Assembly (NCBI GenBank): GCA_023818645.1
Contig: JAMWCJ010000002.1
Span: forward strand, 9,454 to 73,453
Length of the DNA stretch: 64,000 nt
DNA from: Candidatus Omnitrophota bacterium
GTDB lineage: Bacteria; Ratteibacteria; UBA8468; B48-G9; JAFGKM01
Direction of reading: 5' to 3'
In this document: in pieces, positions 41,324 through 41,543 of the stretch
Numbering within the stretch: the first letter of the stretch is position 1
How the letters are laid out: every line of letters begins with the position of its first letter
The notes under the pieces: generated by a model
Told to the model about the DNA's origin: nothing
Seen by the model: only the letters and a program-made list of their open reading frames with translations
Database searches by the model: none
Position numbers and translations under genes: made by a program

Positions 41324-41543
41324 ATTGCACCTCCTATAAAATTTAATCTATATATAATCATCCGCATAAATATAGCGGATGGTAAAAGAGAGTATAATGT
41401 GTTCTGCAAAATTACACATTTGAAACTTTTTCTCTTTATAATTTTCATAATTATAATATGTTGACATATCATCTATTTTATCCCTTATAAATTTTTTGTC
41501 AAATATATTTTTACATGTATTTTTATTTTTGTCAAATTTTTGT
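41324..41543 (-). promoter_or_regulatory. Conserved leader/promoter module, copy 1
   Basis: Near-identical to 52074-52280. Contains the RBS (GGAGGTG on the sense strand), a 7-bp-stem hairpin (41359-41381), the palindrome ATGTGT-N11-ACACAT (41397-41419) next to a TATACT -10-like box, and two TTTGACAAA direct repeats. Confidence 0.6.
41359..41381 (-). promoter_or_regulatory. 5'-UTR hairpin, copy 1 (catccgc-N9-gcggatg)
   Basis: Perfect 7-bp inverted repeat 36 nt upstream of the start codon. Identical in copy 2. In copy 3 the sixth stem pair changes from g:c to c:g (catccgC/Gcggatg becomes catccgG/Ccggatg), keeping the stem perfect. Confidence 0.55.

Follow-up and report, generated by a model that had tools for sequence, protein, structure and literature searches.

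Two pilin-like genes on one strand of an Omnitrophota genome are preceded by what looks like a single control region present twice. What is this repeated leader, what does it bring to the genes behind it, and how have its copies stayed so alike? We addressed these questions in the surrounding 64,000-nt stretch of DNA (the window) and in related genomes and metagenomes. To our knowledge, Omnitrophota is a phylum without isolates.

Near-identical leaders precede two pilin-like genes

The first features of the locus are the two leaders and their genes:

40556–41323, minus strand: gene A, prepilin-type N-terminus, DUF1559 and C-terminal H-X9-DG motif (Pfam N_methyl and SBP_bac_10; TIGR02532 and TIGR04294)
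41324–41543, minus strand: leader A, comprising the promoter(s), 5′ UTR and ribosome-binding site (RBS) of gene A; 98% identical to 52074–52280
51303–52073, minus strand: gene B, prepilin-type with DUF1559 (Pfam N_methyl and SBP_bac_10; TIGR02532)
52074–52280, minus strand: leader B, upstream of gene B

An initial annotation of this DNA had described the leaders as nearly base-for-base identical, separated mainly by a 12-bp indel between direct repeats, and had called for a pairwise alignment. Global alignment of leader A (220 nt) with leader B (207 nt) bore out both statements: 203 columns are identical and 4 are mismatched, so that aligned bases agree at 98%, and the 13 gap columns comprise one 12-bp indel between two TTTGACAAA repeats and one 1-bp indel. 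The elements that it had listed (RBS, hairpin, palindrome, TATACT and two direct repeats) are present in both leaders, which are read on the minus strand together with their genes. The distal end of leader A lies 27 nt past the stop codon of an upstream 1,189-aa open reading frame (ORF), and A/B similarity ends sharply on this side, where 10 of the next 30 bases match. Within the genes, identity is 92–95% over nucleotides 1–120, 75% over 121–180 and 62–65% over 181–240, and then about 40%, which is the background for DNA of 28% GC. The earlier estimate that conservation extends some 38 codons into the genes is thus about right.

A 42-nt proximal core of the leader occurs three times in the window and in none of 100 shuffles. 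That a metagenome assembler produced the repeat by collapse or chimerism is hardly credible: contigs of metagenome-assembled genomes (MAGs) often break within it, but leaders A and B differ by four substitutions and two indels and sit in different flanks, leader A recurs at 100% identity in an independently assembled contig (L001, GCA_023819585.1), and members of the family are present in several MAGs and metagenomes. The duplicated leader is real.

The leader belongs to a family tied to pilin-like genes

The window holds a third, more diverged copy, leader C with gene C, which the initial annotation had missed:

56772–57563, minus strand: gene C, prepilin-type with DUF1559 (Pfam N_methyl and SBP_bac_10; TIGR02532), followed by a 1,328-aa ORF
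57564–57803 (approximate), minus strand: leader C, the common ('C-type') variant, ending in the same tail, spacer and RBS
57774–57803, minus strand: promoter of leader C, TTGACA-18-AATAAT (promoter scan)
57719–57737, minus strand: CT tract of leader C
57642–57666, minus strand: hairpin 1 of leader C
57599–57617, minus strand: hairpin 2 of leader C

Gene C shares the proximal 45 nt, a hairpin and the N-terminal coding block with A and B. All three products score above cutoff with PF07963 and TIGR02532 and carry the G-F-T-L-I-E cleavage/methylation motif, found by six-frame search, with a hydrophobic helix; PF07596 (DUF1559) matches them at 40.5–53.8 bits against a cutoff of 23.3. TIGR04294 exceeds its cutoff in A only (25.4 versus 19), the variant ends of B and C giving no match.

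Searching 185,579 species genomes for a 25-nt core returned nine exact matches in two other MAGs. Together with those in the window, where the core is present at three of three prepilin-motif genes, all 12 copies belong to leaders of pilin-like genes and keep one orientation. Likewise, 18 of 18 modules made of a hairpin plus ATTAYATATA fall in such leaders, the seven other ATTAYATATA sites being without a hairpin, and neither the core nor the consensus promoter occurred in viral contigs. Copies scattered without regard to pilin-like genes would have pointed to a generic MITE-like repeat, as the initial annotation had remarked; because every further core copy directly precedes a DUF1559/prepilin-type gene in the same orientation, the leader is not a scattered MITE. 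Among the loci recovered, the cassette is found only before genes of this type.

The common leader type differs from A and B in its distal part, as the region upstream of the hairpins is unrelated between the two. Its hairpin module is doubled in tandem, except in related loci L002 and L005, which have one module only, and it contains a tract of 6–14 CT units that differs between paralogues. Leaders A and B have no such tract and thus lack the repeat expected of a phase-variable leader. The middle region of the A/B type was not found elsewhere in a metagenome-wide exact search for its palindrome TGTGTAATTTTGCAGAACACA; the one match, upstream of a DUF3575-like ORF on an unrelated high-GC contig, was judged to be chance. 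Exact-protein look-ups for B and C, aimed at allelic copies and CT-tract polymorphism, returned nothing on record.

We also considered whether the hairpin and ATTATATATAGATTAAATTTT module might have been left, as its end or its footprint, by a transposable element inserting before pilin-like genes. The tandem duplication in the common leader would fit, as would an IS110-like ORF that begins 14 nt from hairpin 2 in loci L006, L008, L018 and L020, given that IS110/IS1111 elements pick specific targets (PMC11208160, PMC11187229). However, leaders A and B have no flanking terminal inverted repeats or target duplications, one boundary fades gradually within the coding region, orientation to the gene is constant with every module in a leader, and the window contains no insertion sequence (IS). 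Moreover, L018 has a leader-like promoter beyond the IS remnant, so that the IS looks inserted into a pre-existing leader. A mobile origin is highly improbable on this evidence.

Pilin-like genes open glycan-active operons

Gene A opens a long co-directional array of glycan-active genes. The array headed by gene B encodes a CBM_4_9 protein, a 1,266-aa GH42-like protein, a GntR/Peripla_BP_3 regulator and the 1,189-aa protein, and its pilin–CBM–giant protein synteny is kept in the orthologue L022. Gaps to the downstream co-directional genes are 0–108 nt, and the domains of the window neighbours include GH38, GH42-like, CBM_4_9 and Laminin_G_3. Nine of the ten related loci that have downstream sequence likewise show the pilin-like gene followed by further large ORFs; in the seven of them scanned against Pfam, GH42, GH123_N, CBM9, Laminin_G_3, DUF4838 or NHL-repeat domains were present. 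The regulator gene lies between leaders B and A:

45249–46319, minus strand: GntR-HTH plus Peripla_BP_3 regulator (AraR-like architecture; Pfam and NCBIfam matches)

A predicted sigma-70-type promoter at a homologous position

Promoter scanning and comparison of the copies gave the following sites:

41475–41502, minus strand: proximal promoter of A, TTGACA-16-TAAAAT (11/12 match), with a predicted transcription start site (TSS) near 41468
52224–52251, minus strand: proximal promoter of B, TTGACA-16-TAAAAT (promoter scan, 11/12)
41507–41535, minus strand: distal promoter-like site of A, TTGACA-17-AAAAAT preceded by TG (promoter scan, 10/12 with TG)
52267–52272, minus strand: distal TTGACA of B
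41391–41396, minus strand: TATACT box, aligning with the ATTATATATA tail in other copies

Hexamers near TTGACA/TATAAT are present in all three leaders, with spacers of 16 nt in A and B and 18 nt in C, as in sigma-70-type promoters. The scan overall gave about as many sites as shuffled AT-rich DNA (100 versus 94). The proximal site of A is among the best five in 17.7 kb and is positionally homologous to TTGACA-17-TATAAT of related leaders: TTGACA-16/17-TATAAT stands at the homologous place in L002, L003, L005, L009 and L010, and the promoter is also recognisable in L017 and L021. The proximal TTGACA-16-TAAAAT is thus the best candidate for the main promoter. From its consensus match, transcription is predicted to start near 41468 in A and 52217 in B, which would give a 5′ UTR of about 145 nt.

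Without the 12-bp insertion the distal promoter-like site of A would not exist, and B lacks these 12 bp; L018 has a similar TTGACA...TGTAAAAAAT. Two ATTTGACAAAAA repeats lie 33 bp apart in A and 21 bp apart in B. We favour reading the two TTTGACAAA repeats not as paired regulator sites but as the outcome of a partial tandem duplication that involved an ancestral −35/spacer, in which case the distal −35 would be a relic or weak, turned into an extended −10 promoter-like site in A by the further insertion.

The TATACT box, which had been taken for a −10-like element, fares differently. It has no −35 partner at 16–18 nt, is not among the strongest promoter-scan matches, those listed, for this strand, and occupies the place that the ATTATATATA tail of hairpin 1 takes elsewhere. 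It is probably a degenerate tail after hairpin 1 and not a −10.

Compensatory changes preserve the leader hairpins

Downstream of the promoter, leaders A and B contain a series of palindromes and hairpins that ends at the RBS:

41456–41469: perfect 14-bp palindrome ATATGTCAACATAT over the predicted TSS of A, just after the best −10
52205–52218: the same 14-bp palindrome in leader B
41397–41419, minus strand: palindrome ATGTGT-N11-ACACAT of A, the positional equivalent of hairpin 1 in the common leader type
52147–52169, minus strand: palindrome ATGTGT-N11-ACACAT of B
41359–41381, minus strand: hairpin 2 of A, CATCCGC-TATATTTAT-GCGGATG (N9 loop), −10.4 kcal/mol
52109–52131, minus strand: hairpin 2 of B
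41335–41358, minus strand: invariant AU-rich tail plus spacer ATTATATATAGATTAAATTTTATA, of which the ATTATATATARATTAAATTT(T) part is conserved in 12 of 12 RBS-proximal copies
41321–41334, minus strand: Shine–Dalgarno (SD) GGAGGTG (41328–41334) and ATG (41321–41323) of A, read from the sequence

Leader A folds better than its shuffles (z = −2.76), and in the family each GC-rich leader hairpin is followed by ATTAYATATA, with one or two hairpins per UTR. We tabulated stem pairs from individual folds, as MAFFT misaligned inner pairs across differing loop lengths. The stem of hairpin 2 is kept through compensatory changes across copies: the nine full variants contain seven distinct stem sequences, and L021 has a wholly different one. 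Stem position 6 is G-C or A-U and position 7 is C-G or G-C, with compensatory swaps across hairpin modules; G·U pairs occur in the sense orientation only, and loops measure 3 to 9 nt. Base pairing in the hairpin modules is thus maintained as in a structured RNA. Leaders A and B are so alike in their distal halves that these give no covariation, and the structural test covers the modules. The ATGTGT-N11-ACACAT palindrome is weak alone (−3.1 kcal/mol) and is extended by an AAAGAGA/UCUCUUU pairing in the full fold, in which ATATGTCAACATAT is predicted to form the first hairpin of the leader RNA, a 5′-terminal stem-loop.

The 14-bp palindrome ATATGTCAACATAT, absent from the initial annotation, has exact copies in the window in leaders A and B only and is a candidate operator for these two genes. 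As a regulon-wide operator it was rejected, with no further good copies in the window and 27 matches at up to three mismatches against 19 expected.

The GGAGGTG element lies 7 nt before the ATG and is conserved in all copies. A switch that sequesters it was discarded, since its predicted unpaired probability is 0.45 in A, 0.06 in B and 0.23 in C and thus not conserved. A 44-codon leader ORF of A and B, which begins ATGAAAATT and ends in an ATGA overlapping the gene start, was rejected as coding because it has no SD, because both A/B differences in it are non-synonymous and because its frame is broken in C-type copies, where hairpin length differs.

Hairpins of this kind might be leaky intrinsic terminators, GC-rich stems with an A/U tail in the 5′ UTR, whose read-through is controlled by a protein, small RNA or ligand to give a glycan-responsive regulon. 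The stems are GC-rich, as in intrinsic terminators; a terminator scan flags both hairpins of leader C, compensatory changes preserve the pairing, the common type has two tandem modules, and a consensus-strength promoter followed by a 145–190-nt leader is typical of attenuation control. By contrast, the AUUAUAUAUA tail is a poor, at best moderately U-rich tract (5 U in 10), L002 and L005 have a single module, and the A/B-type and C-type folds share no antiterminator pairing, the sequence upstream of the hairpins being wholly different. Rfam 15 covariance models run at E ≤ 5 over 40–59 kb gave no relevant match, the best overlapping one being rli36, with 27.8 bits where the gathering score is 50. 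A regulated attenuator or similar structured cis-regulatory RNA is unlikely, although of the alternatives it is the one we take most seriously.

Leader and N-terminal block probably evolve in concert

At codons 14–40, third positions are identical at 24 of 27 sites in all three gene pairs, in proteins that are otherwise about 44% identical; distant homologues whose amino-acid block is almost unchanged, at one to four substitutions, match at only 55–63 of these 81 nt. Leader B resembles leader A, and codons 41–60 of gene B resemble those of gene C. Different leaders stand before the orthologues of body A (59–73% identity) and body B (67%). Because synonymous identity exceeds what the protein needs, and because bodies and leaders have different relatives, gene conversion is indicated, and the copies have most likely been kept alike by recombination, either by conversion or by unequal exchange. 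Purifying selection on DNA or RNA could account for part of the synonymous conservation. The earlier suggestion that duplication or conversion affected a control region and the N-terminal coding block jointly is supported by the linkage, the third positions and the separate relatives; its other half, common regulation of A and B, we put forward as what the shared leader would imply.

Conservation of DNA beyond protein need and the mosaic relationships of A, B and C could instead mark a substrate for surface-protein variation, in which a Piv/IS110-like recombinase or RecA swaps C-terminal domains or operons behind one expression site. Related loci do have a divergent IS110/Piv-family-like ORF 71 nt from the pilin-like gene (start codon to start codon), and Piv is related to IS110/IS1111 transposases (PMC11187229). 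However, one such ORF, a 131-aa fragment cut by a contig end, matches PF01548 below the Pfam cutoff (23.5 bits versus 29, E = 5e-5), and a search for a full-length IS110-like protein gave three short or truncated relatives only; the IS110-like ORFs are thus either truncated or mere remnants. Neither a recombinase nor a transposase is encoded in the window, which also has no inverted sites of the Piv type and no promoterless silent cassettes of the pilE/pilS type: each of its three copies is a complete gene that has a promoter, RBS, full ORF and downstream operon to itself. They are direct repeats in the same orientation, so that site-specific exchange would delete 5.5–10.7 kb and not invert it. 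We regard recombination for surface variation as very unlikely.

A model for the cassette

We consider it probable that leaders A and B represent a multi-copy expression cassette for prepilin-type/DUF1559 genes that open glycan-degradation operons, homogenised by recombination, with the A/B form as one variant of the leader family. The proximal sigma-70-type promoter would drive each A/B operon and yield a 5′ UTR (145–190 nt in the family) carrying, in order, the 14-bp palindrome, a weak hairpin, the GC-rich hairpin and the invariant AU-rich tail, and then GGAGGTG, ATG and the codons of the prepilin signal peptide and hydrophobic helix. In the mRNA, the hairpins would most likely serve as a structural insulator or stabiliser beside an open AU-rich ribosome-loading stretch or, alternatively, as a partial attenuator. 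The operons would have in common a strong promoter and their translation-initiation context, and operon-specific control would sit in the middle of the leader, which differs between A/B and common types. The GntR/sugar-binding regulator encoded between A and B is a candidate to act on the A/B-type leader, perhaps at its palindromes. The invariant N-terminal coding block would provide homology for conversion, giving leader and gene body separate histories.

A further reading, which we hold to be decidedly unlikely, is that Omnitrophota possess a lineage-specific cis-regulatory RNA system that has so far escaped description. Its 'CAUC-stem-GAUG + AUUAUAUAUA' modules would be recognised by a dedicated RNA-binding factor or nuclease, the hypervariable (CU)n tract of the common type would tune or switch individual pilin-led glycan operons, and an IS110-type element would specifically target the hairpin. 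If this were true, cells would choose their glycan-harvesting pseudopilin/enzyme set stochastically, operon by operon.

The analysis shows that the much-expanded DUF1559 pilin-like genes stand systematically first in large glycoside-hydrolase operons and have one control cassette in common. An abundant family of unknown function is thereby linked to the use of glycans, and a common regulon is suggested. The cassette's near-consensus sigma-70 promoter, strong RBS context and conserved mRNA hairpin offer a testable handle on Omnitrophota gene expression. The repeat also accounts for the breaks at pilin-like genes in MAG contigs of this group and is the mark of a recombination hotspot within the genome. 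That paralogous surface-protein genes can share a conserved 5′ cassette, and that gene conversion homogenises such cassettes, is well known; the present cassette is real and coherent but ordinary in kind, and changes no general principle.

Comparison with known systems

The nearest protein relatives are the DUF1559 paralogue families (PF07596, TIGR02532, TIGR04294) of Planctomycetota, Verrucomicrobiota, Lentisphaerota and Omnitrophota, whose N_methyl plus DUF1559 architecture recurs in genes A, B and C and whose H-X9-DG end recurs in A. Such paralogues are numerous per genome, with 74 in Rhodopirellula baltica (PMC2754498). Our literature search found no shared promoter/5′ UTR cassette for DUF1559/prepilin-type genes, and the genes studied here stand consistently first in glycoside-hydrolase operons.

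The vlp, vsp and vsa systems of Mycoplasma are multigene surface-protein families with a conserved 5′ region and signal peptide. As in these, a near-identical promoter/5′ UTR and signal-peptide codons are joined to divergent bodies, and the common-type leader holds a simple-sequence tract. Unlike them, each copy here heads its own enzyme operon, the A/B leader is free of a tract, the locus has no recombinase and the cassette shows no evidence of on/off switching. With Neisseria pilE/pilS and Moraxella Piv the cassette shares type IV pilin-like N-termini conserved in DNA as recombination homology and, with Piv, IS110/Piv-like ORFs that adjoin some related copies. In contrast to both, the window has no silent cassettes, inverted sites or recombinase, and the outcome appears to be homogenisation of a 5′ cassette, not diversification of one expressed gene.

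The 'putative mobile promoters' described by Nijveen, Matus-Garcia and van Passel in 2012 (PMC3575422), a form of promoter reuse, are likewise highly similar upstream regions repeated within one genome and common to related genomes. Here, however, the downstream genes are paralogues and the similarity enters the coding region, which argues for recombination between paralogues rather than a promoter moving alone. Finally, some 5′ UTR stem-loops have a role in mRNA stability or RBS insulation, the E. coli ompA leader being an example. As in ompA-type leaders and in intrinsic attenuators, an AU-rich stretch containing the SD is preceded by GC-rich hairpins whose pairing is conserved; unlike generic stabilisers, the cassette has an invariant CATC...GATG-ATTATATATA signature, which suggests sequence-specific recognition.

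Two pilin-like genes share an almost identical leader

Only three ORFs in the window, whose G+C content is 28%, carry a prepilin motif:

40556-41323, minus strand: gene A; prepilin cleavage/methylation motif (PF07963, TIGR02532), then DUF1559 (PF07596), with an H-X9-DG end (TIGR04294)
51303-52073, minus strand: gene B; PF07963 and TIGR02532, then DUF1559 (PF07596)
56772-57563, minus strand: gene C; PF07963 and TIGR02532, then DUF1559 (PF07596)

The three proteins are 43-44% identical overall, with identical residues 14-40. The regions upstream of genes A and B, 41324-41543 (leader A) and 52074-52280 (leader B), had been described as nearly identical in the initial annotation, and their global alignment bears this out, with 203 identical positions, 4 mismatches and two indels, of 12 bp and 1 bp. 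The similarity ends abruptly on the distal side, where 10 of the next 30 bases match, and extends into the coding sequence at 92-95% (nt 1-120), 75% (nt 121-180) and 62-65% (nt 181-240), reaching a background of about 40% past nt 240. A repeat finder recovered the pair together with a third, weaker copy at 57355-57654, and the window contains three instances (at most one mismatch) of the 42-nt stretch running from the hairpin 3′ arm to the ATG, compared with none in 100 shuffles. Leader A and gene A are also identical in a contig from an independent assembly (GCA_023819585.1, JAMWCQ010000124.1). The repeat is real, and neither chance nor an assembly artefact.

Each pilin-like gene is the first of a tight co-directional array. 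Gene A precedes ORFs of 874, 599, 801, 641 and 812 aa with Laminin_G_3, GH66-like and GH38 domains; gene B, a CBM_4_9 protein, a 1266-aa GH42-like protein, a GntR-HTH/Peripla_BP_3 regulator and a 1189-aa protein; and gene C, a 1328-aa ORF. Outside these arrays, the window is ordinary chromosomal sequence (pst transporter, aminoacyl-tRNA synthetases, DprA, FtsZ), and no recombinase or transposase was found there. More large ORFs follow the pilin-like gene in nine of the ten related loci with downstream sequence, and the seven scanned against Pfam contain GH42, GH123_N, CBM9, Laminin_G_3, DUF4838 or NHL-repeat domains.

An AT-rich 79-nt repeat family (36019-36097, 37820-37898 and 45086-45164; 63-71% identity) lies at gene junctions and start regions within pilin-led arrays. 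Three URO-D-like (uroporphyrinogen decarboxylase family) ORFs (28225-29310, 19905-21008 and 57955-58938) sit amid glycan-active genes, an unusual companion of glycoside-hydrolase operons. Abutting leader B upstream is a block of about 120 nt (52281-52403), A/G-rich on the minus strand, for which no structure is predicted (z = +1.1). It has 89% identity with L005:108-221, just past the last gene of another pilin-led operon.

The leader family is linked to pilin-like genes

We searched one genome per species (185,579 species) with a 25-nt core of the leader, GATGATTATATATARATTAAATTTT, which excludes the RBS and coding sequence. Of its nine matches, eight belong to a single Omnitrophota MAG (JAMWCO01) and the ninth to a MAG with the label Ratteibacteria. 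Downstream of all nine, within 15-20 nt, come GGAGG, a start codon and a protein with the conserved N-terminus, M(K/L).. Across the window and all loci fetched from other assemblies and metagenomes (numbered from L001), 18 of 18 'stable hairpin plus ATTAYATATA' modules lie in pilin-like leaders, and the seven ATTAYATATA sites outside such modules all lack a hairpin. No leader copies were found in viral contigs. With every core and module before a pilin-like gene, there is no sign of the scattered, unlinked copies that would have told against the regulatory interpretation in the initial annotation.

MAG contigs often start or stop within the leader or within the conserved N-terminal codons (L003, L004, L007, L008, L009 and L012), as expected where short-read assemblies are broken by a multi-copy repeat; the number of copies per genome is thus underestimated. 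L006, from a MAG labelled Ratteibacteria, and L008, from one labelled Omnitrophota, have a near-identical IS-like start (93% aa identity across 42 shared residues), hairpin, core and pilin N-terminus. As the two labels denote different candidate phyla, this implies mislabelling, contamination or horizontal transfer.

Anatomy of the leader

The common variant (C-type), as described from window copy C and L002-L005, L009 and L010, reads from 5′ to 3′:

Promoter (5′-most element): TTGACA, 16-17 nt (AAAATAAAAATATAGGG), TATAAT
After the promoter: A-rich stretch, variable-length (CT)n tract, AT-rich stretch
Hairpin 1: CATCTACCA...TGGTGGATG, then ATTATATATA
Hairpin 2: CATCCGG...CCGGATG, then ATTATATATAGATTAAATTTT
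3′ end: GGAGGTG and ATG

Leaders A and B have the same two ends and a different middle. Their best coding-strand sigma-70-like matches are TTGACA-16-TAAAAT at 41502..41475 (A) and 52251..52224 (B), each scoring 11/12 and within the top five across 17.7 kb in a promoter scan. When B (TTGACAAAAATAAAAATATA-TTTGACAAAAAATTTATAAGGGG-TAAAAT) is compared with the family consensus (TTGACAAAAATAAAAATATA-GGG-TATAAT), the two TTTGACAAA direct repeats reported earlier are best read as a partial duplication, in tandem, of some 20 bp from the ancestral -35 and spacer; of the two, only the proximal one lies at the proper distance from a -10. In A, the additional 12 bp (TAAAAATAcatg) are themselves a local duplication and give rise to a second site, TTGACA-17-AAAAAT preceded by TG, and a similar arrangement, TTGACA...TGTAAAAAAT, occurs in L018. 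The TATACT previously proposed as a -10-like box lacks a -35 partner and aligns with the tail after hairpin 1 in other copies, and is probably not a -10.

Directly 3′ of the -10, A and B alone carry a perfect 14-bp palindrome, ATATGTCAACATAT, with no further copies in the window. The palindrome of the initial annotation, ATGTGT-N11-ACACAT, stands where other leaders have hairpin 1; weak alone (-3.1 kcal/mol), it is extended by AAAGAGA/UCUCUUU pairing in the full fold. Against shuffled controls, the roughly 145-nt predicted 5′ UTR of A shows better folding (z = -2.76), and that of C does so less clearly (z = -1.4).

The (CT)n tract of the C-type (57719-57737, minus strand, in the window; also in L002-L005, L009 and L010) varies from about 6 to 14 units between paralogous copies, and is interrupted in L002 and L003; at the corresponding place L017 has a GA-rich stretch and L021 a T-rich one. 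Possibly the tract is a hypervariable 5′ UTR site of the slipped-strand kind.

The hairpins probably act in the mRNA

Among the hairpin modules, nine variants with seven different stems can be told apart. The four outermost pairs (CAUC/GAUG) hardly vary; C-G or U·G is found at position 5, G-C or A-U at position 6, C-G or G-C at position 7, and U·G, C-G or no pair at position 8, with loops of 3 to 9 nt. L021, a gene A orthologue from another metagenome, has a wholly different, longer stem (CAGGAC...GTCCUG) in its place, again followed by ATTACATATA. Wobble pairs are without exception G·U on the sense strand and would be A·C mismatches in the antisense strand or a cruciform, which points to selected structures acting in the pilin-gene transcript.

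The leader matched no Rfam family, predicted Shine-Dalgarno accessibility is inconsistent between copies and the folds reveal no alternative pairing shared between them, so that no conserved switch is evident. In the reading that we favour, the hairpins would border an open, AU-rich stretch for ribosome loading and make the message more stable or insulate it. Such a role would matter because leader A starts only 27 nt past the preceding ORF, making read-through transcripts likely. The main alternative would be partial attenuation; a terminator scan flagged both C hairpins, but their tail is a poor U-tract.

An IS110-like ORF abuts related leaders

In several related loci, the leader is broken just 5′ of hairpin 2 by an ORF divergent to the DUF1559 gene; L007 has the same junction as L008, and L019 is grouped with L018:

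L006:3045-3437, plus strand: IS110-like ORF abutting hairpin 2
L008:2-127, minus strand: the same
L018:6001-6258, plus strand: the same
L020:617-1117, plus strand: the same

At its N-terminus it has a weak match, below the cutoff, to the DEDD transposase domain of IS110 (E = 5e-5). The distance between its start codon and that of the pilin-like gene, by the convention of the called-gene tables, is 71 nt in every case, and the ORFs are cut off by contig ends or decayed (an 85-aa remnant in L018). Beyond the L018 remnant lies a leader-like promoter, which looks as if an existing leader had taken up the insertion.

Because elements of the IS110/IS1111 family choose specific targets and are related to Piv, the pilin invertase of Moraxella (PMC11208160, PMC11187229), a variation system was considered. 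In the window there is no IS110-like gene, the three leader copies are repeated in direct orientation, and A, B and C are all complete, expressed-type genes; we accordingly rank this reading low for the locus.

Leaders and gene bodies have separate histories

Over codons 14-40, all three gene pairs share 77-78 of 81 nt, including 24 of 27 third positions. Homologues from other lineages, whose amino-acid block is almost unchanged (one to four substitutions), share 55-63 of 81 nt with A, compared with 65-77 for leader-bearing copies (leader-bearing L002 is an outlier at 57); the DNA is thus more alike than the protein requires. Gene B is a mosaic, resembling A in its leader and codons 1-20 and C in codons 41-60. 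The closest relatives of the body of A (59-73% identity) have C-type-like leaders (L021, L017) or, being internal genes, none (L013-L015). For body B, the nearest relative (67%) has the same pilin-CBM-giant-protein synteny and an unrelated upstream region. Leader and body therefore have separate histories, in line with the duplication or gene conversion suggested in the initial annotation. The simplest cause would be gene conversion or unequal recombination among paralogues, with the invariant N-terminal block providing homology.

The A/B-specific middle was not found elsewhere; a metagenome scan gave a single match, judged to be chance. The matching 25 nt of the A/B leader, AAATGTGTAATTTTGCAGAACACAT, are identical at L011:3211-3235, in an unrelated high-GC metagenome contig, contain a TAnnTTTG motif and lie there upstream of an ORF resembling (by eye) a Bacteroidota DUF3575 protein. 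The match is probably a coincidence.

Possible regulation

The middle region common to A and B is absent from C, and the array between leaders B and A includes a regulator gene (45249-46319) with a GntR winged-helix N-terminus and a LacI/PurR-type periplasmic-binding-protein-like sugar domain, an AraR-like architecture. Judging from this arrangement, the A/B-specific palindromes are reasonable candidate operators of the regulator, and A and B may be co-regulated apart from C. A dedicated control system that works by RNA recognition or is tuned by simple-sequence repeats, with IS110 insertion being targeted, seems quite unlikely to us.

Comparison with known systems

Literature searches on DUF1559, H-X9-DG and Omnitrophota pilins yielded nothing on the leader, hairpin module or operon placement. 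The leader, its hairpin module and its systematic position before 'pilin-like gene plus giant glycoside hydrolase' operons of Omnitrophota appear undescribed. The phenomenon itself is already known: the leader is a conserved 5′ expression cassette common to paralogous surface-protein genes and probably homogenised by recombination. The conserved N-termini of type IV pilins are one example, and Mycoplasma vlp/vsp-type families, which likewise place a conserved 5′ expression cassette over paralogous surface-protein genes, are another. Promoter reuse is a known related phenomenon (PMC3575422).
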